This document shows positions 1 through 30,534 of a stretch of DNA of 30,534 bases, in pieces. The notes below the pieces were generated by a model. That model was not told where the DNA came from, did not search any database, and saw nothing but the letters and a program-made list of their open reading frames with translations. How positions within the stretch are numbered: the first letter of the stretch is position 1; every line of letters begins with the position of its first letter. The translations under genes were made by a program, and so were the position numbers. Source of the stretch: Verrucomicrobia bacterium UBA6775 (GTDB lineage: Bacteria > Verrucomicrobiota > Verrucomicrobiia > Limisphaerales > UBA1096); NCBI GenBank assembly GCA_002453165.1, contig DKGH01000188.1, positions 1 to 30,534 on the forward strand. The letters are read 5' to 3'.

Positions 1-2045
1 AGCTTGGCCAAGTCGACCTCCAAGGTCGCTTCCTTTTGATCCTTCTTCACTTCCAGTTCGCCCAATTTGTCCAACTGGGATACGCCGTATGCCTTGAGTT
101 TGAAGTTCGCGGTGAATTCCCCATGCCGCTCGATGCCAAGCGGAATCTTCACCTTGCCGTTCGCTGGAGCCTTGAACAGCGCTTGGCCAACCGGTGCCAC
201 TCGCACTGGCTCGGGATCGCTGCCATTCACCGACAACACACTGCCCTTGGCCAAGCGCGCCAAGACAGGCTCATTATTGTAATCGCCGACACGATGACGA
301 GTGACCGTGGTCGAGGCAGGCACTTCTACCGGCTTCCCCCCGATCTCGGCCTGGCCTACGAATCGTATTTCACCCGTAAAAGCTTCCTCCGCACTCTCGT
401 TCATCAGGTGCGCGGTAATGGCACCCTGCCCCTGCTTGATCTCATCATTCCTCAACCTGACCCCCTTCGGCAGGTTTTGGGTTTGAATCTTGATCGGCCC
501 GTTGAAGTTGCCACTTCGGATTGCCACAAATCGAATCGGCAAACTGGAGCCCTTACGGAGGTGTGTTGCCATCAACTCAATATTTCGCTTGTCCTTCGCC
601 ACCGGTACGGTCTGTGGATGAACGAGCAGCTTAAAACCGGGGGTCTCCCGCCGAACAGAAACAAGGTAGGTCTTGAATGAATCATCCGAGGCCTGGTTAA
701 ATAAGTCGCGCAATTCAACCCGCAGGTAGCCGTCGGACTTTGCCTGAAACCGCCACGACACGTCGCGGTTGGTCATGTTAAATTCACGACCACCCGGATT
801 GGTTTTCAACTCGTAAAACTCATTGGCCTTCTCAGGACTCTCCTTACCATCCGCAGCAACGTTTACTACCTGTGCTGTGACGTACGGATTCGTGTTATGC
901 CCCAACCGTTGTGAGTGGACGTCCAGCCAGTATACGCCGTCCTTTTTCACTGGGAACCTGTACACGTCCACATCCCGCGCCGGGAAAAACCGACCGGCTA
1001 GCACCCCCGGTGAAGACACCTGTTGCGGTTTTGCTTGGTTTTCGACGTCATCCTTTTCAAGTGTGATCGCTTGACCGTTCGCATGGGCGATGAAAAACGG
1101 ATTGCTCACCGACGATCCGGATGCCAAGCGGTACACGCCCCCGTCCAAAACGATTGATGCGGGAGGCAAAATGACACCACCCGGCAACGCGGCCCGAGCC
1201 AAATCCCCAGCCCGAACAACCAGTTTTTCAAGCGACCGGCCGTCCGCGCCCTTTTTATTAGATGGCACCGAATTGGGAAGATTCCTGCCGTACAGCGTCA
1301 CCGCCGATTCCTTCAAGTCACTGAGCACTGGCGGGTAGACGAAGTCAATGTGCAAGCCAGTCGTAATTTCCAACCGAAAGAAATGCTCCTGCCCCCCGGC
1401 GAATGCGGTATCATGGACTTGAATAAATAAATCTGCGTCCCCGGCCGGGATATGATCGATCAAGCCATCCGCTCCGGCGCGTTTCAAACGACCGCCAGTG
1501 GCGTCCCTCAAATACACAACCGGATCCAATCTTGAGTCAAGCGCCTCCGCCGAGAGTCGCAGCAGTAAACGCTGATCCTTTTTCGCGGGTAACCTGAACC
1601 ATGCGGACTGTCTCGCAATGGCGACTCCGTTCACGACAGATAGGGCACGTACAGCGAAGGCTGCCGCCATGCTGGTGTTGTTTCCGGGGCTGCTTAATTC
1701 ATCGAGCGGGCCAACAGAAAACGGCCTCGGATTCGACACCCCGAACGCTCCGATGTAACGAACCTCGTAGACACCGGACGGTACTTCTGCCGCCGCCTTT
1801 ACCCGGAATTTATTCTCTCCCGGCTTGATCAGTTCGGCACTGATACCTGAGTGGGAAAAATAAAGACCGGTCGCCCCCTCCAAATCTCCACCGAATGCAG
1901 TGATCACCGTCTCTCCACCGGCTTGGCAGCCCAAAGGAAAGACGGCGGTCAATCGTGACGTTGGCAGTTGGCCAAGCGCTTGGCCAAGCGCGCCAAGCAA
2001 CAGCAGGCCAACAAGCGAACACCGGGAAAAGAATCGAAAAGCCAT
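1..2045 (-). CDS. Secreted hypothetical protein, 3'-partial (runs off the window start), with a signal peptide and PPC-like beta-sandwich segments
   Basis: Absent from the ORF track because it has no stop inside the window. Hand translation of the minus strand from ATG at 2045 gives 681 codons to position 3 with no stop (MAFRFFSRCSLVGLLLLGALGQALGQLPTS...LEVDLAK). The N-terminus is hydrophobic and signal-like. Segments such as ARDVDVYRFPVKKDGVYWLDVHS resemble pre-peptidase C-terminal (PPC) domains. The + strand ORFs at 36..2094 are short shadow ORFs. Confidence 0.8.
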   Translation of the reverse strand, partial: MAFRFFSRCSLVGLLLLGALGQALGQLPTSRLTAVFPLGCQAGGETVITAFGGDLEGATGLYFSHSGISAELIKPGENKFRVKAAAEVPSGVYEVRYIGAFGVSNPRPFSVGPLDELSSPGNNTSMAAAFAVRALSVVNGVAIARQSAWFRLPAKKDQRLLLRLSAEALDSRLDPVVYLRDATGGRLKRAGADGLIDHIPAGDADLFIQVHDTAFAGGQEHFFRLEITTGLHIDFVYPPVLSDLKESAVTLYGRNLPNSVPSNKKGADGRSLEKLVVRAGDLARAALPGGVILPPASIVLDGGVYRLASGSSVSNPFFIAHANGQAITLEKDDVENQAKPQQVSSPGVLAGRFFPARDVDVYRFPVKKDGVYWLDVHSQRLGHNTNPYVTAQVVNVAADGKESPEKANEFYELKTNPGGREFNMTNRDVSWRFQAKSDGYLRVELRDLFNQASDDSFKTYLVSVRRETPGFKLLVHPQTVPVAKDKRNIELMATHLRKGSSLPIRFVAIRSGNFNGPIKIQTQNLPKGVRLRNDEIKQGQGAITAHLMNESAEEAFTGEIRFVGQAEIGGKPVEVPASTTVTRHRVGDYNNEPVLARLAKGSVLSVNGSDPEPVRVAPVGQALFKAPANGKVKIPLGIERHGEFTANFKLKAYGVSQLDKLGELEVKKDQKEATLEVDLAK
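1968..1991. repeat. Tandem dimer of the iterated palindrome (TTGGCCAAGCGCTTGGCCAAGCGC) inside the signal-peptide coding region
   Basis: Read directly from the sequence. Cores are at 1968 and 1980, and 1976..1991 is a perfect GCGCTTGGCCAAGCGC. The gene frame translates it as ALGQALGQ. Confidence 0.95.
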
Positions 2046-2056
2046 GCTCATTAATA

Positions 2057-2070
2057 CGCTTGGCCAAGCG
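2057..2070. repeat. Single intergenic palindrome copy CGCTTGGCCAAGCG
   Basis: Perfect 14-nt palindrome in the 45-bp gap between the stop at 2091 (minus) and the next minus-strand start at 2045. Confidence 0.95.
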
Positions 2071-2090
2071 GCAGCATTCAACGCAACAAC

Positions 2091-4595
2091 TTAGTGGTTG
2101 AAGAGAAATTCCTTGGTGTTCACCAAGGCCCAGAGGATGTCCTCGAATCGCTCCTTGGTTTTGTCCACCGGCTTGCCGTCTTTGTCCACGGCCTCGCGAT
2201 TCAGATAACCCACCGCCACATCGACCTCCTCCTTGCGGGGCAGTCTCGCGAATGCCCGGTAGTAGAGGCTGTTGAGTTTCATTTCATGACTGCTCTCCTT
2301 GTCGGACGCCAGTTCTGCCGCTCGGCCATCTTTCCGAGCCAATTGTTCGTGGATGTTCTTCGCGTTAAACAGGTGAAGACTTTGGGCAAGGCTGGCCTCC
2401 TGTGATCGTTCGCATTCGCAGGCACTGGATGAGTCCGGCCGACCGAACACGCTCAGGAAATAATTCGAGCTGTTGTAGCTGTTGTCCGGCAGACACACCG
2501 CTCGGGTGCCCACCGGTAGGCCGCTGAAATCGCTCTTGGCCAAAATCAAGTCATTCAACGAATCGTAGAGCACCTCCGCCGTCAGGCGCTTGGGCTGGAA
2601 ACGCGAGAAGTAGTGCTTGTCCTTTGCGTTGTGCTCGTTGGGCACGGAACTGAACTGGTAAGTGGTCGAAGTGGTGATTACCCGGACAAGTTCCTTCAGG
2701 TCGTAATTTGATTTCTCAAAATGATTCGCCAACTCATCCAGCAAGGCCGGATGGGTCGCCGGGTTTGTGGAACGAAAATCATCCTCGGGATCAACAAGCC
2801 CGCGACCAAAGAAATGTTTCCAGTAACGGTTCACGAGCGTCTTGGAGAACAGGCGATTGTCATCGACCTTCATCCAGTCGACCAAGCGATGCCGGGGATC
2901 TTCGACTGCCGCGATCGCCAACTCGCCCGAGCCCAACCCGGCCGGCTTGACCGGCTTGTTGGTTTTCTTGTTTGTCACCTGTGCGACGCCGGCGCGGTGG
3001 AAAATCATGTCCTCCCCGGGGCGACCGGCGTTTGCCTTGCCCACTCGCGAGAAAAACGCCATGAAGCTGTAGTAATCGTTTTGCGACCATTTCTCGAACG
3101 GATGATGGTGGCACTGGGCACACTGCAGGCGAGTGCCAAGGAACAACTGCGCCGTGTCCTCCATTTGGGCCTGCTGCGAGTTGACCTGCTTGAACCAGAC
3201 CGTCGGCGGGCTTTGTTTGATGTCTCCCGACGCGGCGAGAATCTCGCGCACAAAACGATCGTACGGCTTGTTATTGTAAAAACTCTCCTTGATCCAATCG
3301 TAAAACGCCATAGTGGTTTTCAACTGTGCCCCGTTGGCTCGCTTGTTGCGAAGGAGCGACGACCACTTGTTGGCGAAAAACTCGGCGTACTCCTCCGTCC
3401 TCAGCAGGCGCTCTACCAAAGCGGTTCGTTTGTCGGGCGACTTGTCTGCGGCGAATGCCTTCGCCTCGTCCACCGTGGGTAACCGCCCTGTGATGTCGAG
3501 TGTCACACGACGGAGAAAGGTCGAATTGTCCGCCACAGCCGAGGGTGGCATGCCCACTTTTTTCAACTTTGCGAAAATGAACTTGTCAACGAAATTCTGC
3601 TCGGATGGCAAACTCTCGACAGGCGCTCCCAGCGGAACCGACGCCCGAAAAACGGATGCCTTGTCCTGGTAACGAATCATCACTGCTATCTCACCGGGAT
3701 GATTTCCCGCAGTCACCAAGCCGGTGTTGTCGGCCTCGGCGAATTCGCGATCGTTCGCTTCGTACACGGCCGAGTGGGTGATGTCTTCCACTGAACCGTC
3801 AGTCATCCGCGCCAACACCACGAGTTGCTGCTGTGCGCCTGGCTTCATCACGCGCTCGGCAGGGTGCACCTCGATCGCGTCCAGCTTGGGATCGGTCGGC
3901 TTGCCGTAGGGCATGCCCTGTCGCATCCACTTGACGATCATCTTGTAGTCAAATGAGCCGGCATCAATCCGTGATCCGCCGCCGTGCGGCAACTGGCCGC
4001 TGGCTTTCAGCAAAAGCAGACTGCGCTCCGGCGCGGCCGGAAAGATGCGCCGCCCGCGCGCCTCGCGGAGTAGATACTCGTAATCCTCCGGTGGCTCGAA
4101 GCCGAGCAGCGAGAGTTTGAATCCGTTCTGGCCGCCGGACTTTCCGTGGCAGCCGCCCCCGTTGCAGCCGTGCTTGGTGAACAACGGCACGATGGAGTTT
4201 GAAAAATTGACCTGTTTTTCGAGCGCGGCGTTTTTGACCTCGAACGGGATGGATGCCTTTTCGCCAGTCTCGGTCTCGACAGTAATCTGCCCTACCCCGT
4301 TCACGACCGGCTCGACCAATCCATTGGTAACCCGAACCAGCCCTTCTGGCTGGGTCGTCACCCTGACCGTGCGAGTGTGGTCGACGAGAAAACCGTCCGG
4401 CAACGATTCGGTGACGAGCAGTTGCTGTCTCGCGTCAGAGCCATCGAGCACGACGCGCTCTAGCGACTTGCCACCCCAACCTGGAGTGGCGACCTGAATT
4501 GCGGCGTTTAGTGATGCAAGACTCAGCAGGCAAACGACGAACACACCTGCTAAACCTGCAATCCTCCTTGAAATTGCTGTTAATCCAACAGACAT
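2091..4595 (-). CDS. PSCyt2 (DUF1549) / PSD1 (DUF1553) domain protein with an N-terminal Ig-like domain
   Basis: The track ORF is 2091..4658. The likely start is the internal ATG at 4595 (MSVGLTAISRRIAGLAGVFVVCLLSLASLNA, a signal/anchor). It has an Ig-like segment and a CNGGGCHG motif. CAQCHHHPFEKW is typical of DUF1549, and the C-terminal FGRPDSSSACECERSQEASLAQSLHLFN is typical of DUF1553. Confidence 0.85.
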   Translation of the reverse strand: MSVGLTAISRRIAGLAGVFVVCLLSLASLNAAIQVATPGWGGKSLERVVLDGSDARQQLLVTESLPDGFLVDHTRTVRVTTQPEGLVRVTNGLVEPVVNGVGQITVETETGEKASIPFEVKNAALEKQVNFSNSIVPLFTKHGCNGGGCHGKSGGQNGFKLSLLGFEPPEDYEYLLREARGRRIFPAAPERSLLLLKASGQLPHGGGSRIDAGSFDYKMIVKWMRQGMPYGKPTDPKLDAIEVHPAERVMKPGAQQQLVVLARMTDGSVEDITHSAVYEANDREFAEADNTGLVTAGNHPGEIAVMIRYQDKASVFRASVPLGAPVESLPSEQNFVDKFIFAKLKKVGMPPSAVADNSTFLRRVTLDITGRLPTVDEAKAFAADKSPDKRTALVERLLRTEEYAEFFANKWSSLLRNKRANGAQLKTTMAFYDWIKESFYNNKPYDRFVREILAASGDIKQSPPTVWFKQVNSQQAQMEDTAQLFLGTRLQCAQCHHHPFEKWSQNDYYSFMAFFSRVGKANAGRPGEDMIFHRAGVAQVTNKKTNKPVKPAGLGSGELAIAAVEDPRHRLVDWMKVDDNRLFSKTLVNRYWKHFFGRGLVDPEDDFRSTNPATHPALLDELANHFEKSNYDLKELVRVITTSTTYQFSSVPNEHNAKDKHYFSRFQPKRLTAEVLYDSLNDLILAKSDFSGLPVGTRAVCLPDNSYNSSNYFLSVFGRPDSSSACECERSQEASLAQSLHLFNAKNIHEQLARKDGRAAELASDKESSHEMKLNSLYYRAFARLPRKEEVDVAVGYLNREAVDKDGKPVDKTKERFEDILWALVNTKEFLFNH

Positions 4596-4661: not shown

Positions 4662-5276
4662 TCAATGAAGTACGGGAAGGTCGCTAGGCTGCACCACCAG
4701 CTCCGCATCCAGTTCGAGATAGAATTCGAGGCGCCGCTCAGTCTCCAATTCGTCGATACGCTTGGCCATGAGCAGGTACGAGGCGTAGTGATTTCCCTCC
4801 GACTTCACCAAATCGCCATAAAACTTGGCCAAGCGCTGGTCCACCGAGGCCAATGCCACCGCGAGAATCTGAAATTTCTCGCAACTCCGCCCCTCAATCA
4901 TCGCCGCGCAGAGCAAATGATCGATCACCTGCTCGTTCCGCCCCCTGCGAACCGAGTTCATCATGCCGGAAATCCAAGGGCTGGAGATCGCTTGGCCAAG
5001 CGCCATCCCCCTGTCATCCAGTATCTTAAGCACCAAGTTGAAATGCTCCAACTCCTCGATGGCGATCTCCGTCAACTCAGGCAGCGAGTCCGCCAACTGC
5101 TGATACCGTTGGAGTTTCAGGGCCGATTGCGCCGCTTTTCTCTCCAAATGGGCATGATCGACCAGCACGGCATCCAAGTTTGCTAGCACCTTGGTCAGCC
5201 ACGATTCCGGAGGTTTTGCTCGGAGCATCAACATCGCTACACCGCAAGCGCGGCGGGCGAACAGTACGGCAGTCAT
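4662..5276 (-). CDS. miaE: tRNA-(ms2io6A37) hydroxylase MiaE-like di-iron protein
   Basis: The C-terminal 200 aa of track ORF 4662..5597 match my recollection of MiaE: LVDHAHLERKAAQSAL, IEELEHF, LLCAAMIEGRSCEKF and SEGNHYASY, which are paired E..H-type di-iron motifs. The 5277..5597 extension overlaps rpmH antisense and is low-complexity. Start chosen at ATG 5276; ATG 5234 or 5228 are also possible. Confidence 0.75.
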   Translation of the reverse strand: MTAVLFARRACGVAMLMLRAKPPESWLTKVLANLDAVLVDHAHLERKAAQSALKLQRYQQLADSLPELTEIAIEELEHFNLVLKILDDRGMALGQAISSPWISGMMNSVRRGRNEQVIDHLLCAAMIEGRSCEKFQILAVALASVDQRLAKFYGDLVKSEGNHYASYLLMAKRIDELETERRLEFYLELDAELVVQPSDLPVLH

Positions 5277-5629: not shown

Positions 5630-6034
5630 ATGACGGCCTCCGGCCAAACTGAGATTTTTCCTAAGTCCAGCCGTATCCAAGCCAGCGCGGATTTCCGGGC
5701 CAACCGGGAAAACGGTCAGCGCTTGGCCAAGGGCTGTCTTTTGGCCAATTGGCAAACGCTACCGCCGAATTCTCCCTCCCGCCTAGGGGTGGTCACCAGT
5801 CGCCGTGTCGGCAAAGCGACAATTCGAAACCAAGCTCGTCGCATGATGCGCGAATGTTTTCGACTGCATCACGGCGAGTTACTCAAACGGGTTGATTTGG
5901 TTTTGGTCGCAAGACAGTCCATCGCCAATCGGGGGTTCCGGGCTGTGGAGAGGGATTTTCTCCGCTTGCTGAAAAAGACCGGCCTCCTGCCCAACTCGTC
6001 CGGCCCGGCCTACCCGGCGACAGACTCCAATTGA
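5630..6034 (+). CDS. rnpA: Ribonuclease P protein component
   Basis: [28 protein letters not shown] matches the RnpA RNR motif region. It sits in the conserved rpmH-rnpA-yidD-yidC order. Confidence 0.9.
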
Positions 6035-6309
6035 TGAATCCGCTGCAACATCTTCTTTTGCTGATGATCCGTTTTTACCGTCTGGTTTTGTCCCCGGCTA
6101 AGAATGCCCTGCTTGGTCCGGGCGGTTCCTGTCGTTTTTCACCAACCTGCTCTGCGTATGCAGTGGACGCCATCAAGGCCCACGGCGCGCTGCGTGGCAG
6201 CTGGCTTGGGCTCCGCCGAATCGTGCGTTGTCATCCGTGGGGTGGATGCGGGCATGATCCCGTCCCGGCCAAGTGGACTGAGCTTGGCCAAGCCAAGACC
6301 TCTCGTTAA
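6034..6309 (+). CDS. yidD: Membrane protein insertion efficiency factor YidD
   Basis: [10 protein letters not shown]...[46 protein letters not shown] is a typical YidD sequence. ATG 6034 shares one nt with the rnpA TGA. The track start at 6031 is TTG in the same frame. Confidence 0.9.
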
Positions 6310-8581: not shown

Positions 8582-8608
8582 GCGCTTGGCCAAGCGCTTG
8601 GCCAAGCG
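8582..8608. repeat. Intergenic tandem dimer of the palindrome (GCGCTTGGCCAAGCGCTTGGCCAAGCG)
   Basis: Cores at 8586 and 8598. Positions 8583..8608 form a 26-nt perfect palindrome (11-bp stem, 4-nt loop possible). It starts 12 nt after the jag stop and ends 12 nt before the thrS ATG. Confidence 0.95.
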
Positions 8609-8620
8609 GACACCGCCAAA

Positions 8621-10435
8621 ATGGAATCCGCCAAACACGACGTTCAGCGCAAGACCCTCGAGGAACGCAACCAGATGAGCGAACTCGAGCGACTGCGGCA
8701 CTCCTGCGCGCACCTGCTCGCCACCGCCGTGCTTCGCCTTTGGCCCGATGCCAGGCTCGACATCGGTCCGCCCACTGCGGAGGGATTCTATTACGACTTC
8801 GACCTTGAGCACCGTTTTTCACCCGAGGACTTCGAGACCATCGAGGCCGAGATGAAAAAGGTAACGAAGGAAAACCAGACATTCGAGCGCAGCACAAAAA
8901 CACGCGAGGAGGCCAAGGCCTACTACGCCGAGCGCGGGCAAAATTTCAAGGTCGAGCGCGTCGACGACATCCCCGAGGGCGAGGAGATTTCGTTTTACCA
9001 AAACGGCGAGTTCGTCGATCTGTGCGCCGGCCCGCATGTCATGCGCACCGGCAACATTAAGGCATTCAAGCTGCTGCGAGTCGCCGCCGCCTACTATCGC
9101 GGTAACGAAAAGAACCCGCAACTGCAACGCATCTACGGCACGGCGTTTAAGAATAAGACACAGCTCAACGAGTGGCTCGAGGCTCAGGAGGAGGCGCGCA
9201 AGCGTGACCACCGCAAGATTGGCCGCGAGATGCAGCTTTTCGCGTTTGACGACGATGTCGGTCCCGGGCTGCCACTCTGGCTGCCCAAGGGCACGGTGCT
9301 CATCGAGGAACTGGAAAAACTGGCCAAGGAGACGGAATTTGAGGCCGGCTACGAGCGCGTGCGCACGCCACATCTCGCCCGCGAAAACATGTACAAAACA
9401 TCGGGACACCTCCCCTACTACGCCGAGAGCATGTTTCCGCCAATGGAGGTGAAGGATGATGATCCGGACAAGCCGACCGACCGGATTTATCTCAAGGCGA
9501 TGAACTGCCCGCATCACCACAAGATTTTCTCAGCCGTGCCACGCAGTTACCGCGAACTGCCGTTGCGACTGGCTGAGTACGGAACCTGTTACCGATACGA
9601 GCGCTCCGGCGAATTGATGGGCCTAATGCGCGTGCGCTCGATGCAGATGAACGACGCGCACATTTACTGCACCCCGGAGCAGTTCGCCGACGAATTTCGC
9701 GCCGTCAATGAGATGTACCTGAAGTACTTCAGGATTTTCGGATTCGAGAAATACAGCATGCGCTTCAGCACCCACAGCCCAGATCGGCTTGGCGACAAGT
9801 ATGTCGACGAGGCGGAGTTGTGGACACAAACCGAGAACATGGTGCGCGACGTCCTCGTGGAGTCCGGCGTCGACTTCGAGGAGGTTCCGGACGAGGCGGC
9901 GTTCTACGGACCGAAGATCGACGTGCAGGTCTACAGCATCTCCGGTCGTGAATTTACAATCGCCACCAATCAGGTGGACTTCGCCGTGCCCAAGCGCTTC
10001 GGACTTGAATATAAGACTCGCGAGAACACACCGGAAGTCCCGTTGTGCATCCACCGCGCCCCGCTTGGCACGCACGAGCGGTTTATCGGTTTTTTAATCG
10101 AGCATTACGCCGGAAACTTTCCCCTTTGGCTGGCACCGGATCAAGTACGTCTCCTCCCATTTGGCGACGATCAGATCGAGTACGCCAAGGAAGTTGTCAA
10201 CGAGTTCCGCAAACACGAGGTGCGCGTCAGCCTGGACACGACCTCGGACAAGATTGGTGCCCGCATTCGCCGGGCCGAGACGGAAAAAGTTCACACTATC
10301 CTGCTTGTTGGCCAACGGGAACAGGAAGCCGGCAACTTGGCGGTCCGCGAACACGGCAAAGGCGATCTCGGAGCCAAGCCGAAAACCGAAGTCATTAGTG
10401 ATCTGCTCGAACGAATCAACACACGCCAAGGCTGA
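8621..10435 (+). CDS. thrS: Threonine--tRNA ligase, short N-terminus (no TGS domain)
   Basis: RHSCAHLL (editing/SAD region) lies at residues 26-33. Class II motifs are present, including NCPHHHKIF, GLMRVRSMQMNDAHIY and FYGPKIDV, plus a C-terminal anticodon-binding domain. Confidence 0.95.
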   Translation: MESAKHDVQRKTLEERNQMSELERLRHSCAHLLATAVLRLWPDARLDIGPPTAEGFYYDFDLEHRFSPEDFETIEAEMKKVTKENQTFERSTKTREEAKAYYAERGQNFKVERVDDIPEGEEISFYQNGEFVDLCAGPHVMRTGNIKAFKLLRVAAAYYRGNEKNPQLQRIYGTAFKNKTQLNEWLEAQEEARKRDHRKIGREMQLFAFDDDVGPGLPLWLPKGTVLIEELEKLAKETEFEAGYERVRTPHLARENMYKTSGHLPYYAESMFPPMEVKDDDPDKPTDRIYLKAMNCPHHHKIFSAVPRSYRELPLRLAEYGTCYRYERSGELMGLMRVRSMQMNDAHIYCTPEQFADEFRAVNEMYLKYFRIFGFEKYSMRFSTHSPDRLGDKYVDEAELWTQTENMVRDVLVESGVDFEEVPDEAAFYGPKIDVQVYSISGREFTIATNQVDFAVPKRFGLEYKTRENTPEVPLCIHRAPLGTHERFIGFLIEHYAGNFPLWLAPDQVRLLPFGDDQIEYAKEVVNEFRKHEVRVSLDTTSDKIGARIRRAETEKVHTILLVGQREQEAGNLAVREHGKGDLGAKPKTEVISDLLERINTRQG

Positions 10436-10440
10436 CCGGG

Positions 10441-10453
10441 CTTGGCCAAACGC
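10441..10453. repeat. Single intergenic palindrome copy (CTTGGCCAAaCGC, one mismatch in the flank)
   Basis: It begins 6 nt after the thrS stop (10433..10435) and lies 18 nt before the serA ATG. Confidence 0.9.
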
Positions 10454-12061: not shown

Positions 12062-12063
12062 TC

Positions 12064-12088
12064 CGCTTGGCCAAGCGCTTGGCCAAGC
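12064..12088. repeat. Intergenic tandem dimer of the palindrome (CGCTTGGCCAAGCGCTTGGCCAAGC)
   Basis: Cores at 12067 and 12079. Positions 12065..12088 form a 24-nt perfect palindrome. It occupies essentially the whole 27-bp gap between the convergent stops of serA (12061) and the Lon-N gene (12089). Confidence 0.95.
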
Positions 12089-21365: not shown

Positions 21366-21926
21366 CTAATCCTTGCCGCGCACGATCTGGCGGTTTTCAT
21401 TGGGCCAACGGTTGGGATCGTATACCGGATGGGAAAACCAGCCGACCAAGCGCTTGGCCAAGCCGTCAAACAACGGCACGGCCGCGCCACAGAACAGCGC
21501 GTTGATCAACGCCCACAGGCCCATCTCCCAGCCGAGCAACGGCATCGCGCCCGTCATCTTCAGCAAGCCGATCTGCATCAACGGCACGATCAACCCGGCT
21601 GTGGTGCCGAGATAAAACTGGGCCACAAATTCACCACCGAGGATTTTCTTCCGAAAGCAGTAAACAACCCACCCCGCAGCAAACAGCGGCAGGATACTGA
21701 CGCCAAGCGGATTGGCGGAGAGACTGTCCAGCCACAAGCCACTCAGCACTGCGGTGGTCGAGATGTGTCCCGCCCCCATTCTCAGCCCAACGCAGACCAG
21801 CAGCGCCGGCGTCAAATCCGGCTGGAACCCCAGCCAGAGCCTTGGCCAATCGAGGTGCGACTGCAGAAAAATGAGAAGATAAGCCCCCAGCAACAGCACA
21901 AGTATCTTGTTGAGGCGTCCTGTCAT
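21366..21926 (-). CDS. mreD: Rod shape-determining protein MreD
   Basis: Small polytopic membrane protein placed directly after mreC, with 1 nt between the mreC stop and this start. Confidence 0.8.
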   Translation of the reverse strand: MTGRLNKILVLLLGAYLLIFLQSHLDWPRLWLGFQPDLTPALLVCVGLRMGAGHISTTAVLSGLWLDSLSANPLGVSILPLFAAGWVVYCFRKKILGGEFVAQFYLGTTAGLIVPLMQIGLLKMTGAMPLLGWEMGLWALINALFCGAAVPLFDGLAKRLVGWFSHPVYDPNRWPNENRQIVRGKD

Positions 21927-21927: not shown

Positions 21928-22758
21928 TCAGTACTCCGTCAACACCCGCACTTCCTCGAGTTGGTTTAAGTCTGCGTTCAGTTTGACTCGCGCCTCGATG
22001 TAAAGACCGTCCTTGGACAGCCACGAGTCTTCCACCACGCCAACTGGAATCTCCTTCGGGAACGCACCTCCGAGGCCGCTGGTCACGACGGTCTGCCCCG
22101 GGCGCACTTCGGCGTCGTTTGGCAGGTAGGTCAATTCCACTACCCGATAGTCGGAACTGAACTGCCTCGGGGCGACGATGCCGCCCTGGTTGCGGGACTC
22201 CTTGATGAGCGCGGAAAATCGGCAGTTGGGGTCGCCCACGAGAACGGCCCATGAGGTCTTTGGGCCAACTTCAGAAATGCGGCCAACCAACTGTCCCTCC
22301 GTCGAGATGACCGGTTGATTGAATCGAATGCCCGCCTGGCTGCCCTGATTCAGCTTGATCCGCCGCCACCAATTGAACGAATCGCGGCCCACGACCTGTG
22401 CCAGTTCTGACTTCCACGGAATGCGCCGCCCCAAGTTTACCGCCGCGCGCAACCGCTGGTTTTCGGCACGGAGATGGTCCAATTCCATCTTCATGTCGGC
22501 CACGGCAAACTCGGCCTGCACCGCTTGGCCAAGCGCTTGGTTATGGGGGGGATTTCCCGGCTCTGTGGAGGCCGCTTGGCCAAGTGAACTGACCACGCTC
22601 TGGCCAGCCGTACTGACACCGATCACCGGAAGGAACAGCCCCCCGATGGCCGACTTCAGCTTGGCCCGGGCGCTTTCCGGCAGTAGCAGGAGCAGGAACA
22701 CGGTCAGGAGCACTGCCCCGACCGCTGTCTGCTGCGATCTATAAAAAAACTGTTTCAT
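21928..22758 (-). CDS. mreC: Rod shape-determining protein MreC
   Basis: N-terminal anchor, coiled-coil segment (LDHLRAENQRLRAAV), then beta-barrel domains (PVISTEGQLVGRISEV, VVTSGLGGAFPKEIPVG). ATG 22758 is preferred over the TTG at 22770. Confidence 0.9.
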   Translation of the reverse strand: MKQFFYRSQQTAVGAVLLTVFLLLLLPESARAKLKSAIGGLFLPVIGVSTAGQSVVSSLGQAASTEPGNPPHNQALGQAVQAEFAVADMKMELDHLRAENQRLRAAVNLGRRIPWKSELAQVVGRDSFNWWRRIKLNQGSQAGIRFNQPVISTEGQLVGRISEVGPKTSWAVLVGDPNCRFSALIKESRNQGGIVAPRQFSSDYRVVELTYLPNDAEVRPGQTVVTSGLGGAFPKEIPVGVVEDSWLSKDGLYIEARVKLNADLNQLEEVRVLTEY

Positions 22759-23920: not shown

Positions 23921-24889
23921 TCAACGAATCCGAACCTTGGCCACGGGGATGGTCTCGTCGGCGATGTTTCCCTTATTCCCCAGCAAATGAAACTCGATGA
24001 ACGTCCGGAATCGCTCCGGCAACACGCCCCTCCCCCCGCTGTGCCCGCCACCGTCCACTGTCAACAGAGCCGACCGCACCCCGGCCTTCTTCAGCGCATT
24101 GTGCAGCAGCACCGACTGGTTATACGGCACCAACATGTCCTTCGTCCCATGCATGATCAAAAACGGGGCGTCACTCTTGTCCACATACGAAATCGGATCC
24201 GCGGTGAGCGTCCTTTTTTTGTTCTCCTGAATCGCCCCGCCGATCAATTGGCTCTCGGGCGAGTCCGCCGCATCGTGATCGATCCGGCTTTCAAAATCGT
24301 TCATCCGTAGAAAATTCGTCGGGCCGTAATAGTCGATCACACATTGCACCCGCGTCGACTGGTCGGTGTGCGGGCCGATCGATCCATCCATCGCCTCGAC
24401 CCCGGCAGACGTGCCGAGCATCGCGACGAGGTGTCCCCCGGCCGATGTGCCGTGGACGGCAATCCGGTTAGCATCGAGATTGTACTTTTTGGCGTTGGCC
24501 CTGATCCAGCGGATGGCAGCCTTGCAGTCGTGAATCTGCGCCGGCCACTTGGCGTGCTGGCTCAGGCGATACCCGACCGTCACACCCGCGTACTTGCCGG
24601 TTTTCAAATAACCGTGCAGGCGGTTCAGCCCGCCGTCCTTGCTTCCTGCACGCCACGCCCCTCCGTGAATATAGGCGATCACCGGCAGCGGCTTGTCGTT
24701 TCTGCGTTTCAGCGGCAGGGCCATGTCCAGCCTCTGCCGTTCATGATCCGTTCCCGCATAGGCGATGTCTTTCGTGACTTTGAATCCGCTCCAATCCCGG
24801 GTGGGGCGCTTTTGGCGTGAGTCCTGCGCGACCGCTTGGCCAAGCGCCGCGACACACCCCATCACGACTGCCAATCTGGAAAAGTTCAT
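23921..24889 (-). CDS. Secreted alpha/beta-hydrolase esterase (carbohydrate-esterase-like)
   Basis: Signal peptide MNFSRLAVVMGCVAALGQAVAQ, oxyanion HGGAW, nucleophile elbow GTSAGGH and a late Asp/His pair. ATG 24889 is preferred over the track's GTG at 24988. Confidence 0.8.
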   Translation of the reverse strand: MNFSRLAVVMGCVAALGQAVAQDSRQKRPTRDWSGFKVTKDIAYAGTDHERQRLDMALPLKRRNDKPLPVIAYIHGGAWRAGSKDGGLNRLHGYLKTGKYAGVTVGYRLSQHAKWPAQIHDCKAAIRWIRANAKKYNLDANRIAVHGTSAGGHLVAMLGTSAGVEAMDGSIGPHTDQSTRVQCVIDYYGPTNFLRMNDFESRIDHDAADSPESQLIGGAIQENKKRTLTADPISYVDKSDAPFLIMHGTKDMLVPYNQSVLLHNALKKAGVRSALLTVDGGGHSGGRGVLPERFRTFIEFHLLGNKGNIADETIPVAKVRIR

Positions 24890-24906
24890 GCCAAAAACCT
24901 GCCGCA

Positions 24907-24918
24907 CTTGGCCAAGCG
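24907..24918. repeat. Single palindrome copy (CTTGGCCAAGCG) in a divergent promoter region
   Basis: It lies in the 89-bp gap between the divergent starts at 24889 (minus) and 24979 (plus). Confidence 0.9.
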
Positions 24919-24978
24919 ACACAAGCCCGACCCGACTCCGGTCTTGCATCCCGGGCGCCGCTTGGCTTGGATGCCGCC

Positions 24979-26289: not shown

Positions 26290-26296
26290 CCGGCAG

Positions 26297-26318
26297 CTCT
26301 TGGCCAAACGCTTGGCTT
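26297..26318. repeat. Degenerate tandem dimer of the palindrome (CTCTTGGCCAAaCGCTTGGCtt)
   Basis: It fills the 27-bp gap between the convergent stops at 26289 (plus) and 26317 (minus), and its last bases overlap the minus-strand stop codon. Confidence 0.75.
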
Positions 26319-28848
26319 AGAATGTGTTTTTGCGGCCGGGCGTGCCGCCCTTTTCGCGCGAGGCTTTCCAATTTTCGGGATCATTTCCGTCGCCGCCCTT
26401 TGCCGAATCGACTCGGGAGAGGGAGCGACCACTGCCATCCGCCTTGCTTGGCCAAGGCGCCTTGTCTTTGAACGTCACCGAGTCGATTTCATTTCCAAGC
26501 GCGTCGGAAAGGATCACCGTTTCCCCGTTGTTGCTGAGTGAGCGGATGTACTTGCCCGTCGGCTTGAAGCCGTAGCGTGATTTGAACGCCTTCGGATCAG
26601 CGGCCACCACCGTGTGCCCTCCCGGCTCCAGTATCGCCCCGTCTGGAAACTGAAAATACACCCCTCGAGTCAACGCGACCCCGGTGAGAGCCACAGCCTC
26701 TTTGCCGGGGTTCCTGATCTCGACAAACTCAAACCGCTCGGCCGCCACGTTTCGCCCCTCTTTTTTGTCGCCGTTGGCGTGGTATTGAATCTCTGAAATC
26801 TCAAGCGCTGACCCGGCAATCGGCCGGACAAAATACAATTCACGCAACGCGCTCCAATCCTCCGCATTTTTGGTTCGTGTTTTCAACACAACCCCGACCA
26901 GATCCACCGGCTTACCAAGTTCAACTTTTTGAGCCGTGTCCGAAATACCCCCGCCGATTGCCCGGGGATCACTCCCATCCTGTGTGACATAAACCTCCCC
27001 CTTGGCACCAGCCGGTAACTGAATAATGACCGAGGCATCGGCCGGCGCCTCCCTCACTCGATGTACAATCGGTTCGTCCCCAAAAACAACCATCGGCGCC
27101 GGCAACTCGGGATACAGACCACGACGCTGAAGTTGCCTCACAACCTTGTCACGACGGGCCGGAAGCCAGTACTTGAGAAGATAGTCTGCGTTGCGCCGCC
27201 ACCGCGTCGGGGATTCATCGGTGGTGTTTCCCCAACGTGCCGCCTCCGCCGGGATCGCCCGCTCCACCTCAGCGACGCGACGCGCCATTTGCTTAACCGA
27301 GTTTCCCGGCGTCATGGAACCGTTGTTGAACAGGTGGCGGTGAACGTGGTCCGCAAACAGAAGTCGATACTCTTCGTTTTTTGAAAGGCGTTCGTGGAGC
27401 GTTTGCCCGTTGAACCATTCCAACCGACGAAACTTCGCATCGGTGGCCGGGGCCGTACGATCCTCCCAGCCGACATCCATCGAGTGCTCCGCGTCGTGCC
27501 GGAAAAATTGAAACCCGAACGGTTCGTCGTGATCGACCATACAGAAAAAGTTGTTGGTGGATCGCCCACCCCACGCCGCCGCCTCGTCATTGCTGCCGGT
27601 GTAGAAAATCCCCAGCATGTAATCGATCAGGTTGTCGGGATCGACCAATACCTTGCCATCCGGATCCGGCGATCCATCCGGCTTTCGACCAAGCAGCGCG
27701 AAGTAGTCGGCGTTGCTCCCGGACCAGTCGAGCGTCTTTTCGAACAATTCGCGGAACAGGTCGACCGTACCGTCAGTGACTTCGGTCGGCTTCATCCAAC
27801 CCATCGCCTTGATGACGTCAAAGTCTGCGGCATCACCGCCAAAATAGGATGCACCAAATCGTGCCTCCGCACGTTCCTGCGTCATGAAAAGCCCCCAGTA
27901 AATGCCGTTCATGTACGCATGATAGTAGTTGCTCTTCGTGTGATGATGCCCGCTGATACCCTGCAGGTCGCGACAGAAAATATCGCGAAGAAATGTGTTC
28001 CTTTTGCTGTTCTCAAACGCCCACGAGTGGTTTTGCGCAGTCCGCAGATCGATCTTGTCAAACTCGTCCACCCCGGCTTTTCCAAACAACGGATACCTAA
28101 GTTTTCCGTTGCCGTATTCCTTACGAAAGAAGAATCGATACGAATGTTTCGGGTTACGGGAGGACGCACTGTATCCACCACGAATCCGAATCCCGGTGTT
28201 GACCTGAAACCCCTTTTTCCCGTCCGGATAAATCAGCTCAAGCGAACCGGCGATCTCCGTTTTTTTGCCCTGTTCGCGTGGATTTGAGTACAGCCCTGTC
28301 TCCGAATTGAACCACGAATCCAGCGGAGCCACGATCGACATGGTCGGGATGGATTTCAACGCCGAGACGATTTGATCCTTCCAGCGTGGATCATCGAGCA
28401 CCTCCCGGTTCATGCCGTAAATCAAAACCTGCCGATTCGCACGGTTCCCCTCCGGCCATCCGCCCCCCGGACTGCGATGGGACTGTTCCCGAACCTGTTC
28501 CGCGAACAGGTAGGTTGCGGTATCGACATTCGACGGTTTCACCCCCTCCTTCCTGGCGTAGACGCGAAGAATCACCCCCGGCGACAACGGCCTCCCATCC
28601 CGGCTTGTCGGATCAATCTTTACCTTGAGCGGATTCGTCCCCCTCCGGGCAGTGGCCGACTCGCGCGGGTCACTGCCGTCCAATGTATAAACCAAAGTCG
28701 CCCCCTTGGTCTTGGTCGTAATTGTCTCCTCGAATGGCGTCTCGTAAAAACCTCGACCATGCTCAAATTTGGTATCCGCTACGGATGCAGCCCGCAATGT
28801 TGTCGCAAACAGCAGCCCAAAAAGTGCAACGGTAAGATGAAGTTTCAT
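26317..28848 (-). CDS. Secreted CotH-family (atypical kinase fold) protein with a C-terminal lamin-tail domain
   Basis: Signal peptide MKLHLTVALFGLLFATTLRAAS and an N-terminal FYETPF...LVYTLDGSDP segment (chitobiase/hexosaminidase C-like). The CotH core includes IRIRGGYSASSRNPKHSYRFFF and YHAYMNGIYWGLFMTQE. The C-terminus is LTD-like (LEISEIQYH...FEFVEIRNPG...). ATG 28848 is preferred over the TTG at 28908. Confidence 0.7.
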   Translation of the reverse strand: MKLHLTVALFGLLFATTLRAASVADTKFEHGRGFYETPFEETITTKTKGATLVYTLDGSDPRESATARRGTNPLKVKIDPTSRDGRPLSPGVILRVYARKEGVKPSNVDTATYLFAEQVREQSHRSPGGGWPEGNRANRQVLIYGMNREVLDDPRWKDQIVSALKSIPTMSIVAPLDSWFNSETGLYSNPREQGKKTEIAGSLELIYPDGKKGFQVNTGIRIRGGYSASSRNPKHSYRFFFRKEYGNGKLRYPLFGKAGVDEFDKIDLRTAQNHSWAFENSKRNTFLRDIFCRDLQGISGHHHTKSNYYHAYMNGIYWGLFMTQERAEARFGASYFGGDAADFDVIKAMGWMKPTEVTDGTVDLFRELFEKTLDWSGSNADYFALLGRKPDGSPDPDGKVLVDPDNLIDYMLGIFYTGSNDEAAAWGGRSTNNFFCMVDHDEPFGFQFFRHDAEHSMDVGWEDRTAPATDAKFRRLEWFNGQTLHERLSKNEEYRLLFADHVHRHLFNNGSMTPGNSVKQMARRVAEVERAIPAEAARWGNTTDESPTRWRRNADYLLKYWLPARRDKVVRQLQRRGLYPELPAPMVVFGDEPIVHRVREAPADASVIIQLPAGAKGEVYVTQDGSDPRAIGGGISDTAQKVELGKPVDLVGVVLKTRTKNAEDWSALRELYFVRPIAGSALEISEIQYHANGDKKEGRNVAAERFEFVEIRNPGKEAVALTGVALTRGVYFQFPDGAILEPGGHTVVAADPKAFKSRYGFKPTGKYIRSLSNNGETVILSDALGNEIDSVTFKDKAPWPSKADGSGRSLSRVDSAKGGDGNDPENWKASREKGGTPGRKNTF

Positions 28849-28896: not shown

Positions 28897-28909
28897 GCGC
28901 TTGGCCAAG
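28897..28909. repeat. Single palindrome copy (GCGCTTGGCCAAG) upstream of the CotH gene
   Basis: It lies about 50 nt upstream of ATG 28848 in the 242-bp divergent intergenic region. Confidence 0.9.
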
Positions 28910-28979
28910 TGTGCTCATTAGAAAAAATGACTGGAAAAATGCCCAACCCTTAACACTCCATTCATGATCTAGGGCTTTC

Positions 28980-29001: not shown

Positions 29002-29052
29002 TTTGCTGCAATTCTATCATTTCATCAACCATTAAAGTTCACGCTTGCAACT

Positions 29053-29065
29053 CGCTTGGCCAAGC
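29053..29065. repeat. Single palindrome copy (CGCTTGGCCAAGC) upstream of the TIM-barrel gene
   Basis: It lies 26 nt upstream of ATG 29091. Confidence 0.9.
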
Positions 29066-29090
29066 CGGACTCTCACCGGCCATTTTTGAG

Positions 29091-29906
29091 ATGATTCGAT
29101 CAAGCGTTACAATTGCACTGGTGCCGGAGGCCAAGGGTGGGCCATTTGTGTTTTGGGATGACCTCGCCGCTGGCTGCGCCAAAGCGGCTGAACTGGGGTT
29201 CGACGGTGTGGAGGTCTTCCCGCGTGGACCGGAAGCCGTTGACAAGGTGCAGCTGCAGGATTTGCTGGCGCAGCACAATCTTCAGTTTGCCGCAATGGGA
29301 ACCGGTGCCGGCATGGTCGTGCATCAGCTTTCCCTCACACATCCGGAAGCCGACATCCGGTCAAAGGCGATCGACTTTATCAAGAGCATCATCGACTTCG
29401 CCGGGCCGCTTGGCACACCGGCGATCATCGGCTCGATGCAGGGCCGACACGGCGGCGATGTCAGCAGGGAGCAGGCGCTCAACTGGCTCAGCGCCGGTCT
29501 CAACGAACTGGGCACCCACGCCGACGGTCACGACGTTCCGCTGCTCTACGAGCCTCTCAACCGTTACGAGACCAATTTGTTCAACCGCATCGGCGAGGCG
29601 GCGGACTTTTTGCGCACGCTGGATGCGGAAAACGTCAAGATTCTTGCCGACCTGTTCCACATGAACATCGAGGAGCCGTGCATCGCGCAGGGTATCCGCG
29701 ACGGCGGTGACAAAATTGGCCACGTCCATTTTGTCGATAGCAACCGTCAGGCCGCGGGGCGTGGCCACATGGATCACGCCCCGATCGCCACCACGTTGAC
29801 CGAGATCGGCTATGACGGTTTTGCCTCGGCTGAAGCCTTTCCGGTTCCTGACTCGGACACGGCAGCCAAGGCGACAATTGATGCCTTCAATAAGCACTTC
29901 CGTTAA
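29091..29906 (+). CDS. Sugar phosphate isomerase/epimerase (xylose-isomerase-like TIM barrel)
   Basis: 271 aa containing AAELGFDGVEVF, YEPLNRYETN, LADLFHMNIEE and HVHFVDSN, the metal-ligand pattern typical of the AP_endonuc_2/TIM-barrel family. Confidence 0.7.
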   Translation: MIRSSVTIALVPEAKGGPFVFWDDLAAGCAKAAELGFDGVEVFPRGPEAVDKVQLQDLLAQHNLQFAAMGTGAGMVVHQLSLTHPEADIRSKAIDFIKSIIDFAGPLGTPAIIGSMQGRHGGDVSREQALNWLSAGLNELGTHADGHDVPLLYEPLNRYETNLFNRIGEAADFLRTLDAENVKILADLFHMNIEEPCIAQGIRDGGDKIGHVHFVDSNRQAAGRGHMDHAPIATTLTEIGYDGFASAEAFPVPDSDTAAKATIDAFNKHFR

Positions 29907-29907
29907 T

Positions 29908-30534
29908 ATGGGTAAACAACCAAAAAGCGCATCAGGCAAAACCGGCCCACTGGTCGGCAACTGGATTCACATCGTCCGGGTTCTACTGTTCTCCGCAGCG
30001 ATCATCACCGCCTACCTTTCGCTGGCCGCGCTTTCGCAGGCGGAAACCATTCCCGGCTGCGGCCCCGACTCCGGCTGTGACAAGGTGCTCAACAGCAAGT
30101 GGGCCAAGTGGCTCAAAATTCCAGTCTCCCTCCCCGGCCTCGGGCTATACGCGTTTTTCTTCGTCAGTACATTCGGAATTAAGGGAGGCAACCGCGAGAA
30201 AGCCAAGCGTTCGCTGAACACACTCACTCTGTGTGCGGCGGGAATACTTGCGGCAGCGATATGGTTTGTTGGCATCCAGGCGTTCGCCATCAAGTCATTC
30301 TGCACCTACTGCTGCACCGCCCATGCGCTGGCCTCCATCGCAGCCATCCTGTTCCTCACTCAGGCCACCTCAGTCGCGGATAAATTATCCGTGCGACTCA
30401 ACCTTGGCGGGGCCGGAGCTGCCGCAGCGGGACTCGTCGCGCTGATTGCCGCAGGCCAGGTGCTCATGCCAGCGGACGATCACTGGGCCAAGCAAATGGC
30501 CGACAAACAAACAAATAAAGTAACGCAGGTCGCC
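29908..30534 (+). CDS. Vitamin K epoxide reductase (VKOR) family membrane protein, 3'-partial
   Basis: Absent from the track because it has no stop in the window. Hand translation gives 209 codons: MGKQPKSASGKTG...CGPDSGCDKVLNSKWAKWLKIPVSLPGLGLY...FCTYCCTAH.... It shows the loop Cys pair plus the CxxC of VKOR and several TM helices. Confidence 0.7.
   Translation, partial: MGKQPKSASGKTGPLVGNWIHIVRVLLFSAAIITAYLSLAALSQAETIPGCGPDSGCDKVLNSKWAKWLKIPVSLPGLGLYAFFFVSTFGIKGGNREKAKRSLNTLTLCAAGILAAAIWFVGIQAFAIKSFCTYCCTAHALASIAAILFLTQATSVADKLSVRLNLGGAGAAAAGLVALIAAGQVLMPADDHWAKQMADKQTNKVTQVA

Follow-up and report, generated by a model that had tools for sequence, protein, structure and literature searches.

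The 30,534-nt stretch analyzed here (hereafter the window) is contig DKGH01000188.1 of the Verrucomicrobia bacterium UBA6775 assembly GCA_002453165.1. Its gene content is core chromosomal and includes rnpA-yidD-yidC-jag, thrS, serA, moaA, the RNase G gene (rng), and rodA-mrdA-mreDCB. The contig recurs in many marine metagenomes, and its closest ThrS homologs are named Limisphaerales or Verrucomicrobiota. Gene models were refined with the calls on matching contigs and by recognizing yidD at 6031-6309. (This plus-strand open reading frame [ORF] of 92 aa lies between rnpA and yidC and carries the YidD signature CRFxPTCS...RCHPWGG..DPVP; it is omitted by the gene calls on the matching contigs but is called in a relative, L118.) Scattered through these genes and the gaps between them are 34 exact copies of the 8-bp palindrome TTGGCCAA, the center of a longer perfect palindrome, GCGCTTGGCCAAGCGC. 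This iterated element is our subject. Rfam and tRNA scans of the window gave no match.

How far is this number from chance? The first-pass annotation had counted 34 starts of TTGGCCAA by hand, and an exact search returned the identical positions with none overlooked. In 100 dinucleotide-preserving shuffles of the window the 8-mer occurred 0.69 times on average and never more than three times; Markov models of order 1, 2 and 3 predict 0.77, 1.42 and 2.48 occurrences. The perfect 16-mer does start where that annotation placed it (1976, 8582, 14055 and 19716), and sites within three mismatches of it number 28 in the window versus 0.37 expected. Its one-mismatch cores at 4762, 15884, 16006 and 16018 are likewise real, as is its observation that the window opens inside a copy (AGCTTGGCCAAG at 1-12). 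An unbiased ranking of k-mers leads to the same element, the top 8-, 10- and 12-mers of the window being nearly all substrings of the TTGGCCAA-centered motif. The copies continue past the right end of the window, with 12 more in the next 9.4 kb of the same genome. In a pool of 446 kb of clade DNA, consisting of the window and 68 loci from metagenome-assembled genomes (MAGs), the 10-mer CTTGGCCAAG occurs 368 times versus 1.4 expected.

Codon bias had been named at the outset as something that could dissolve the excess, and it does not. Codons were shuffled synonymously within each gene, which keeps the proteins and the per-gene codon usage; 500 shuffles gave 2.4 +/- 1.5 coding copies (maximum 7) versus 21 in the real sequence. 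In the window proteins Leu-Ala-Lys is spelled TTGGCCAAG (TTG-GCC-AAG) in 12 of 14 tripeptides where codon usage predicts 0.9, and Leu-Gly-Gln is spelled CTT-GGC-CAA in four of six where 0.14 are expected. The Leu-Ala-Lys tripeptide itself is 3.5-fold more frequent than amino acid composition predicts. The excess of copies lies at the DNA level, and codon or dipeptide bias and chance are excluded. The element is thus a short perfect palindrome in excess over Markov, shuffle and codon-aware null models, which is the first mark of the class of highly iterated palindromes (HIPs) named after cyanobacterial HIP1. An assembly artifact, the other way in which the first pass thought the excess might fail, can also be set aside since the same copies recur in eight independent assemblies made from other samples, by other projects and with other assemblers. 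The eight matching contigs are 99.6-99.9% identical to the window and reproduce every covered copy bar one polymorphism.

Position matrices were built for the 33 window copies with complete flanks and for 392 copies at related MAG loci, one perfect copy per locus being dropped. They give the consensus sCGCTTGGCCAAGCGs, that is, the 10-bp core CTTGGCCAAG with weaker symmetric flanks, and the information content peaks at the center of the motif and falls off symmetrically outward. The conserved flanks reported at first pass are evident in the window copies, which have C at -1 in 83%, G at -2 in 70% and C at -3 in 74%; over both matrices the figures are 61-70% for G at -2 and 59-74% for C at -3, with S (C or G) at -4. 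In the first gene model the coding copies are read as TTG-GCC-AAx (LAK or LAN) 13 times, as xTT-GGC-CAA (L/V-G-Q) ten times, and as Trp-Pro twice.

The distribution of the element was examined in two ways. An exact scan for the 16-mer, with one genome per GTDB species, returned at least 111 stretches. Among the matches listed, 69 of 111 stretches come from 19 marine Verrucomicrobiota MAGs or single-amplified genomes, and the 42 from other phyla have essentially a single chance match each (the background is about 0.02/kb). Eight-kb pieces from at least 16 related species-level MAGs with GC contents of 55-62% contain TTGGCCAA at 0.7-1.9/kb, values that are somewhat inflated by picking the pieces for a perfect 16-mer. 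None of the sampled MAG loci overlaps the window at the nucleotide level. Orthologous loci anchored on ThrS, which are free of the selection bias, were therefore taken from assemblies and Joint Genome Institute metagenomes to give a divergence series (these loci bear L numbers below). At 87% ThrS identity or more, the densities per kb are 1.11 (window), 1.08 (L117), 0.86 (L246), 0.82 (L250), 0.59 (L248), 0.58 (L249), 0.37 (L119), 0.34 (L245), 0.29 (L118), 0.22 (L120) and 0.07 (L247). Where identity is 78% or lower, the longer loci do not exceed 0.17/kb, which is background or close to it, a few short ones reach 0.2-0.5/kb on the strength of one or two copies, and 46 loci at 52-57% identity have a pooled density of 0.027/kb. 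The motif is therefore confined to a clade of genus to family level, within which its density varies more than ten-fold. High- and low-density lineages are interleaved in a neighbor-joining tree, and L118, L119, L120 and L247 are eroded; as in other cases of the HIP class, the element is lineage-wide with members that have lost it.

Two further contigs deserve mention. A phage-like contig, L189 (IMGVR_UViG_3300032087_002358), has eight TTGGCCAA copies in positions 1-13670 versus 0.27 expected (0.59/kb). It encodes a large terminase, a DnaB helicase, a DnaD-like loader, an exonuclease and RusA, and no methyltransferase is recognizable in the fragment. L189 is probably a phage or prophage of this verrucomicrobial clade that shares the motif of its host. 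The second, L265 (67% ThrS identity, 66% GC), comes from a remoter relative and has a raw count of 20 occurrences of CCGGCCGG in the 21.7 kb of positions 1-21755. In the pooled clade DNA CCGGCCGG is at expectation (60 versus 58.7), and in L265 it may be a different, milder iterated palindrome of another verrucomicrobial lineage.

With yidD counted as a gene, 22 of the 34 window copies (65%) are coding. At the left end, the 695-aa hypothetical gene on the minus strand holds three: the copy cut by the window start (1..15, core 4-11), one in the xTT-GGC-CAA frame as VGQ (179..194), and one in the TTG-GCC-AAG frame as LAK that matches 15 of the 16 positions (243..258). The PSCyt2/PSD1 gene has a copy in the LAK frame (2532..2547). 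In miaE one copy (4821..4836, LAK) is intact in L118 too, and a second (4988..5003, LGQ) stands where relatives have FTQ or FGK, so that here the copy altered the amino acids. The rnpA gene has one copy in the LAK frame (5719..5734) and one in the LAN frame (5737..5752). The LAK peptide is kept in relatives with other codons: RLAKGC includes CGC-TTG-GCC-AAG in the window versus CGA-TTG-GCT-AAA in L118. There follow an LGQ copy in the C-terminal tail of yidD (6280..6295, core 6284), a LAK copy in yidC that is common to L117, L118 and L119 (8043..8058), and a VGQ copy in thrS that is intact in most clade members (10304..10319). The LAK copy of serA (11485..11500) has a neighbor 10 nt downstream, where other lineages use adjacent LGQ codons, so the two sites serve as alternatives in different lineages.

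In moaA a perfect 16-mer encodes RLAKR (14055..14070) and a second copy is in the LAK frame (14181..14196). The RNase E/G gene has a LAK copy at its C-terminus (16085..16100), again common to L117, L118 and L119. The perfect 16-mer in mrdA, the PBP2 gene (19716..19731), encodes ALGQA. In mreD, 21450..21465 is in the LAK frame and 21838..21853 is in the rare TGG-CCA (WP) frame; in mreC, 22521..22536 and 22572..22587 are both in the LGQ frame, and the last is polymorphic, reading TTGGCTAA at 22576 in contig L243. An esterase gene on the minus strand (23921-24889) has an LGQ copy (24832..24847), and a CotH-domain gene has a WP copy (26444..26459).

How did these copies arise? In codon-guided alignments of 13-14 syntenic genes there is no length change at any copy. 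Set against low-density relatives in 37 comparisons, 23 have an identical tripeptide and 14 a different one, indicating that most copies exploit existing peptides and that some changed the protein, as in PBP2 (ALGQAQ versus FDQ or FGH) and MiaE (LGQ versus FTQ). The lack of indels together with point changes at orthologous sites shows that copies arise by point substitution and not by insertion; occurrence in and between genes by substitution is a further property of the HIP class. A mobile repeat, whether a repetitive extragenic palindrome (REP) spread by a REP-associated tyrosine transposase (RAYT) or a miniature inverted-repeat transposable element (MITE), or else a compositional or assembly artifact, might be suggested by a motif that is palindromic, repeated and enriched between genes and by a window that opens inside a copy. 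All of these are effectively refuted. The 22 coding copies are in frame in conserved genes whose codon alignments with orthologs have no length change at these sites, which also disposes of the REP comparison made at first pass, since no insertion appears in the orthologous alignments. Orthologs frequently encode the identical peptide by other codons; neither flanking repeats nor target duplications accompany the copies; the motif spans just 10-16 bp; and neither codon shuffles and Markov models nor the accidents of one assembly (eight assemblies, from different assemblers, have the same copies) can supply the observed numbers. A MITE or other insertion-derived repeat was rejected specifically because orthologous positions align gap-free and differ by point changes.

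The first pass had proposed that conservation of individual copies be checked among relatives. Several are intact across much of the clade, namely those at alignment columns 93 of rnpA, 1732 of thrS, 405 of moaA, 444 of miaE and 2004 of the RNase G gene. Synonymous third codon positions inside copies differ from L118, L119 and L120 in 30%, 38% and 15% of cases, versus 55%, 52% and 47% outside (Fisher p = 0.02, 0.41 and 0.03); for the close relative L117 the values are 0% inside and 12% outside (p = 0.39). Sites are thus conserved above the neutral level, as HIP-class sites are, on a small sample. Motif density per gene and protein conservation were uncorrelated (rho = -0.21, p = 0.5).

Copies also decay. 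One-mismatch relics at sites where others are intact number nine in L118, six in L119 and one in the window. In L118 (GC 48.5%), seven of the nine are C-to-T changes at the central cytosines, and the whole L118 locus has eight TTGGTCAA/TTGACCAA, seven TTGGCTAA/TTAGCCAA and six intact copies. In L247 (GC 41%) almost all copies are gone. Both loci (87-93% ThrS identity) have GC contents far below that of the window (57%), and erosion of the motif and AT drift coincide in them. The simplest reading is that the ancestor was already motif-rich and that the maintaining factor was then lost repeatedly, followed by mutational decay. On a shorter time scale, 12 of the 41 single-nucleotide polymorphisms (SNPs) between the window and L243 fall within 137 bp of mreC (22497-22633), spanning the copies at 22525 and 22576, and one of them is the change of copy 22576 to TTGGCTAA. 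This SNP cluster looks like a short imported recombination patch.

The remaining 12 window copies lie between genes, in sequence that makes up about 5% of the window, so that the first-pass estimate (about 10 of 34 in 4%) was roughly right. The density is 7.4/kb between genes versus 0.73/kb within them (p = 2e-8, computed before the yidD correction, with 13 of 34 copies in 5.7% of the sequence). Intergenic copies have on average 1.6 flank mismatches to the 16-mer versus 2.9 for coding copies, so that the flanks are part of the DNA motif and not a by-product of coding. Single copies lie about 20 nt beyond the PSCyt2/PSD1 stop (2056..2071; the stop is at 2091 on the minus strand), right after the thrS stop (10438..10453), between the divergent esterase and glucuronoyl-esterase-like genes (24904..24919), in the divergent gap ahead of the CotH-domain gene, whose called start is 28848 (28897..28912), and some 30 nt before position 29091, where the IolO-like epimerase starts (29052..29067). 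The TTG of copy 10442-10449 opens the longest serA ORF (10442-12061); callers on related contigs start serA at 10472 or 10583, and the copy is therefore probably in a 36-nt spacer. Its orthologs are intact in L117 and L248-L250 and eroded in L118-L120, L245 and L246. More generally, intergenic copies after the thrS, serA and T2SSE-ATPase stops are orthologous across species, some being intact and some eroded.

Other intergenic copies form doublets, TTGGCCAAGCGCTTGGCCAA, in which two units 12 bp apart share GCGC and, with their flanks, make a 28-nt perfect palindrome. There are three in the window, and related loci have nine more and one triplet; seven of these 12 doublets are within 16 nt of a stop codon. 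The first in the window (1964..1991, cores 1968 and 1980) is in the gap 3' of the PSCyt2/PSD1 gene. The second (8582..8609, cores 8586 and 8598) is a 28-nt palindrome 12 nt past the jag stop, with a predicted RNA hairpin of -21 kcal/mol. The third (12063..12090, cores 12067 and 12079) fills the gap between the convergent serA and LON-substrate-binding-domain genes. Another convergent gap is filled by a copy with core 26300 and a degenerate second unit (26296..26319); these two gaps, 12062-12088 and 26290-26316, are 27 nt each and consist almost wholly of the doublet and the degenerate doublet, respectively. The third convergent gap of the window has an eroded doublet, TTGACCAA at 16006 and TTGGCCAG at 16018 (16002..16029), which follows the T2SSE-ATPase stop and adjoins a terminator at 16034-16063; its first unit is intact in L117, L249, L250 and L119. 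The terminator, between the convergent T2SSE-ATPase and RNase G genes, is canonical and bidirectional, with a 13-bp stem and T and A tracts on the two sides. Its position is kept in relatives, and its stem sequence differs outside the window/L117 pair.

Is the element then primarily a hairpin, in RNA or single-stranded DNA, that acts at gene 3' ends as a terminator or mRNA stabilizer, as REPs, bacterial interspersed mosaic elements (BIMEs) or paired DNA uptake sequences (DUS) do, with the coding copies as spill-over? The ten-fold higher intergenic density would be explained, as would the seven of 12 doublets close to stops and the two filled 27-nt gaps, and doublets do fold stably as RNA (-18 to -21 kcal/mol; z about -4 at 12050-12100). 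Intrinsic terminators have a GC-rich stem followed by a T tract, however, and the doublets have no T tail; a terminator scan of window positions 1-20000 called no motif copy, and the organism has ordinary terminators, one of them beside the eroded doublet. A hairpin role also predicts compensatory changes, yet stem-preserving palindromic double variants are not enriched in the 446 kb of clade DNA, and variants with one change are in 2-19 fold excess. Conservation is highest at GGCC, in the would-be loop where these bases cannot pair, a single 16-mer folds weakly (-8.4 kcal/mol, z = -1), and two thirds of the copies are inside genes. Because double variants are flat, one-offs are enriched, GGCC is in the loop and single 16-mers fold weakly, it is the sequence and not the fold that is kept, and a primary hairpin role is highly unlikely. 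A side observation concerns the Jag-thrS spacer: in L118-L120 and L245-L250 it has no doublet and has instead a shared conserved element, attgccctttgcccggcaagtttctaacctc, which is replaced or absent in the window and L117. This may be a thrS leader or regulatory element.

What reads the motif? The first pass had pointed out that the core contains GGCC and TGGCCA and hinted at restriction or methylation. As stated, this is not borne out. In the pooled clade DNA TTGGCCAA (496 versus 25 expected) stands alone among the 16 NNGGCCNN palindromes in being enriched; ATGGCCAT (14 versus 12), CTGGCCAG (11 versus 17.5) and GTGGCCAC (18 versus 17.4) are at expectation, and so is GGCC overall (4343 versus 4577). 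An enzyme with a GGCC or TGGCCA site would affect all occurrences of its site alike; since other contexts are at expectation, such a site alone is no explanation, and since only one of the 16 palindromes is enriched, the reader of the motif must span at least 8-10 bp. Several 6-bp palindromes (GGGCCC, CAGCTG, GAGCTC, AGATCT, AAGCTT and CCGCGG) are depleted in clade DNA, with observed/expected ratios of 0.3-0.5. Such depletion is the mark of restriction avoidance and indicates that restriction-modification systems act on the clade; it is the opposite of what is seen for TTGGCCAA.

A subtler form of the methylation idea is a repair ratchet. An orphan methyltransferase would mark the palindrome and methyl-directed or T:G-specific repair would convert near-cognates to it, so that abundance is a by-product of repair and not selected. 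This follows Elhai's model for HIP1 (PMC4390886) or a bias like that of very-short-patch (VSP) repair. The perfect palindrome with a GGCC center is of the kind that Type II methyltransferases target, restriction-modification systems are active on the clade, as the 6-bp palindromes indicate, and two methyltransferases, DmtA and DmtC, are linked to HIP1 (PMC4390886). The L118 relics, mostly C-to-T at the two central cytosines, would also fit; they are, though, equally explained by general AT drift, and C-to-T one-offs are not specifically depleted in motif-rich genomes. Indeed the spectrum of one-off variants has no methylation signature and mainly mirrors synonymous positions. Enrichment that is limited to TTGGCCAA and reaches 10-16 bp is not what a 4-6 bp enzyme site predicts. 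Regular-expression searches for C5-methyltransferase motif IV, Vsr, and N6/N4-methyltransferase motifs found none in about 520 kb of clade DNA, a small sample that makes the missing C5-methyltransferase or Vsr signature a weak test. Hiraoka et al. list TGGCCA, in one marine MAG, as a candidate 5-methylcytosine motif without a REBASE match in a marine metaepigenome; they also report five marine Verrucomicrobia MAGs, of unspecified clade, with no methylated motifs or methyltransferase genes (PMC8919816). We treat this survey as only a lead. Finally, site conservation favors retention over continual regeneration, as has been argued for HIP1 (PMC5861425). On balance we consider a ratchet of this sort unlikely.

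Another candidate reader is an abundant nucleoid-associated or chromosome-organizing protein, in which case selection would be on chromosome architecture and not on DNA exchange. Xu et al. proposed a nucleoid role for HIP1, which has a periodicity of 10-90 kb (PMC5861425). A 16-bp dyad with a graded core and flanks is typical of the sites of homodimeric DNA-binding proteins, and the sites here are conserved in and between genes. Spacing speaks against an architectural role on the local scale: on pieces of up to 30 kb the copies are clustered or random, and in the window even spacing is not seen (coefficient of variation 1.06, largest gap 3.6 kb). In the window 13 of 33 intervals are 170 bp or shorter versus 5.7 expected (P = 0.0004), and the pooled loci are equally clustered (124 short intervals versus 78 expected); the short intervals favor multiples of three, which means that shared reading frames account for part of the clustering. 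We know of no candidate protein, and the strong preference for positions right after stop codons would be left unexplained. A nucleoid-associated function is accordingly quite improbable in our estimate.

Comparison with known systems narrows the field. The first pass had likened the element to HIP1 and to the uptake signal sequences (USS) of Haemophilus and the DUS of Neisseria, and the likeness holds up: about one copy per kb, in coding and non-coding DNA, accommodated in particular frames, paired as hairpins at gene ends, clade-wide, and at conserved sites. HIP1 (GCGATCGC) and its variants GGGATCCC, CAGGCCTG and TCGATCGA are short perfect palindromes, as here. The excess is about 14-50 fold for TTGGCCAA in the window and about 250-fold for the 10-mer core in pooled clade DNA, compared with 15-300 fold for HIP1, and the density of about 1/kb compares with 0.3-2.7/kb. 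Both elements occur in and between genes, extend as palindromes past the 8-mer, have enriched one-off variants and conserved sites, and are lineage-wide with loss lineages. The differences are in sequence and phylum (Verrucomicrobiota, order Limisphaerales), in the longer span of 10-16 bp, in the ten-fold intergenic enrichment and 12-bp tandem doublets at gene ends, and in the narrower clade, roughly a genus to family where HIP1 has a phylum. The motif, CTTGGCCAAG, is neither GCGATCGC nor a one-step derivative of it, and its host is not a cyanobacterium. In every testable respect, therefore, the element belongs to the HIP class, yet it is not HIP1.

USS and DUS occur at about 1/kb, have a core with weaker flanks, lie in frames that encode common peptides, form hairpin pairs just 3' of genes, and are shared among related species. 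The element has this distribution (density, core and flanks, frame accommodation, and hairpin pairs at gene ends) but lacks the asymmetry: the USS of Haemophilus and other Pasteurellaceae and the DUS of Neisseriaceae need inverted pairs to form a hairpin, and the present motif is itself a perfect palindrome. What defines USS and DUS is that competent cells preferentially take up the DNA that bears them, via a specific receptor such as ComP. Like REP/BIME elements with their RAYTs, it is palindromic, abundant and hairpin-capable and has intergenic copies at gene 3' ends; REPs, however, are confined to extragenic DNA, measure 20-40 nt, are imperfect and depend on a transposase for their spread, whereas here about two thirds (65%) of the copies are in frame in genes, the motif is 10-16 nt and it arises by substitution. 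VSP repair in E. coli (CCWGG) has a mild effect, limited to its 5-bp enzyme site, and depletes one specific T-containing variant. The element resembles that skew as an over-represented palindrome with a possible cytosine-methylation site and differs from it in a far larger excess, a 10-16 bp span and no specific variant depletion. Chi, too, is a short dense motif, and like Chi the element could label self DNA for recombination enzymes, a Chi-like action that has also been suggested for HIP1 (10.1101/2024.09.10.611283). Chi, however, is asymmetric and has a strand bias relative to replication, whereas palindromes read the same on both strands. Our searches of the literature found neither this motif nor any other HIP-like element described from Verrucomicrobiota.

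What, then, is the element? A genome-wide, sequence-specific pressure on duplex DNA holds the motif in place, via selection or biased gene conversion; all steps beyond this we infer. The pressure suffices to fill almost every synonymous opportunity and to alter amino acid usage; it is stronger still where there is no coding constraint, heritable across the clade, and able to be lost. Reading of a dyad of at least 10 bp, together with this strength, heritability and loss, is what one would expect if the motif were recognized by a protein peculiar to the clade, probably a homodimer, that by its activity favors site-bearing DNA. Our tentative best explanation, to which we give somewhat less than an even chance, is that the element is a clade-specific highly iterated palindrome of the HIP1/uptake-sequence class that serves in self-DNA recognition during uptake and/or recombination. 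Point substitutions, and not transposition, have placed the motif in the chromosome about once per kb, and the pressure that keeps it there would come from this putative protein. The motif would be a self-DNA tag like USS and DUS, or would have an effect like that reported for HIP1: motif-bearing fragments would be preferentially taken up or recombined, thereby spreading and maintaining the motif. The doublets with 12-bp spacing would probably have arisen by slippage between GCGC ends and would have been tolerated, or secondarily used, as 3'-end hairpins. For HIP1, the closest formal analog, an increase in natural transformation of as much as 100-fold has been reported when the sites are methylated (10.1101/2024.09.10.611283), and genes for DNA uptake are reported to co-vary with its abundance (10.64898/2026.06.24.733823).

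Several points weigh against self-DNA recognition. There is no experimental or gene-content tie of this clade to natural competence; the stand-alone PilB/GspE-like ATPase at 14780-15997 is not informative on uptake. All the characterized uptake sequences that we know of (USS and DUS) are asymmetric, and none is palindromic. The copies are clustered and not evenly spaced, and give no support to functions that need regular spacing. The conservation tests have small numbers (6-12 sites per comparison, Fisher p 0.02-0.4). Lastly, a drive from uptake alone does not predict the motif on L189, although a prophage could gain copies in its host. We regard as doubtful the stricter proposition that the motif truly serves natural transformation by signaling self, as a palindromic sequence for uptake or recombination in marine Verrucomicrobia that are abundant and uncultured.

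Hyper-abundant short motifs are rare, and the function of HIP1 (repair, nucleoid or uptake) has been debated for 30 years. An independent HIP-like case in a second phylum is a new test system for the HIP1 hypotheses, with the advantage of a longer recognition span. Relatives that range from 1.1/kb to background, with visible erosion, form a gain/loss series for mapping the responsible gene, and its recent loss from sister lineages could let comparative genomics pick out the receptor or enzyme that recognizes it. As a strong k-mer signature of the taxon the motif can also serve in binning these Limisphaerales, flagging their phages and spotting foreign DNA. If the element is indeed a mark of self DNA, species-specific signals for DNA exchange would exist in abundant uncultured marine bacteria. 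This would be a third independent uptake-sequence system after those of Pasteurellaceae and Neisseriaceae, possibly of the same kind as HIP1, and it would imply frequent exchange of DNA between conspecifics in the open ocean.

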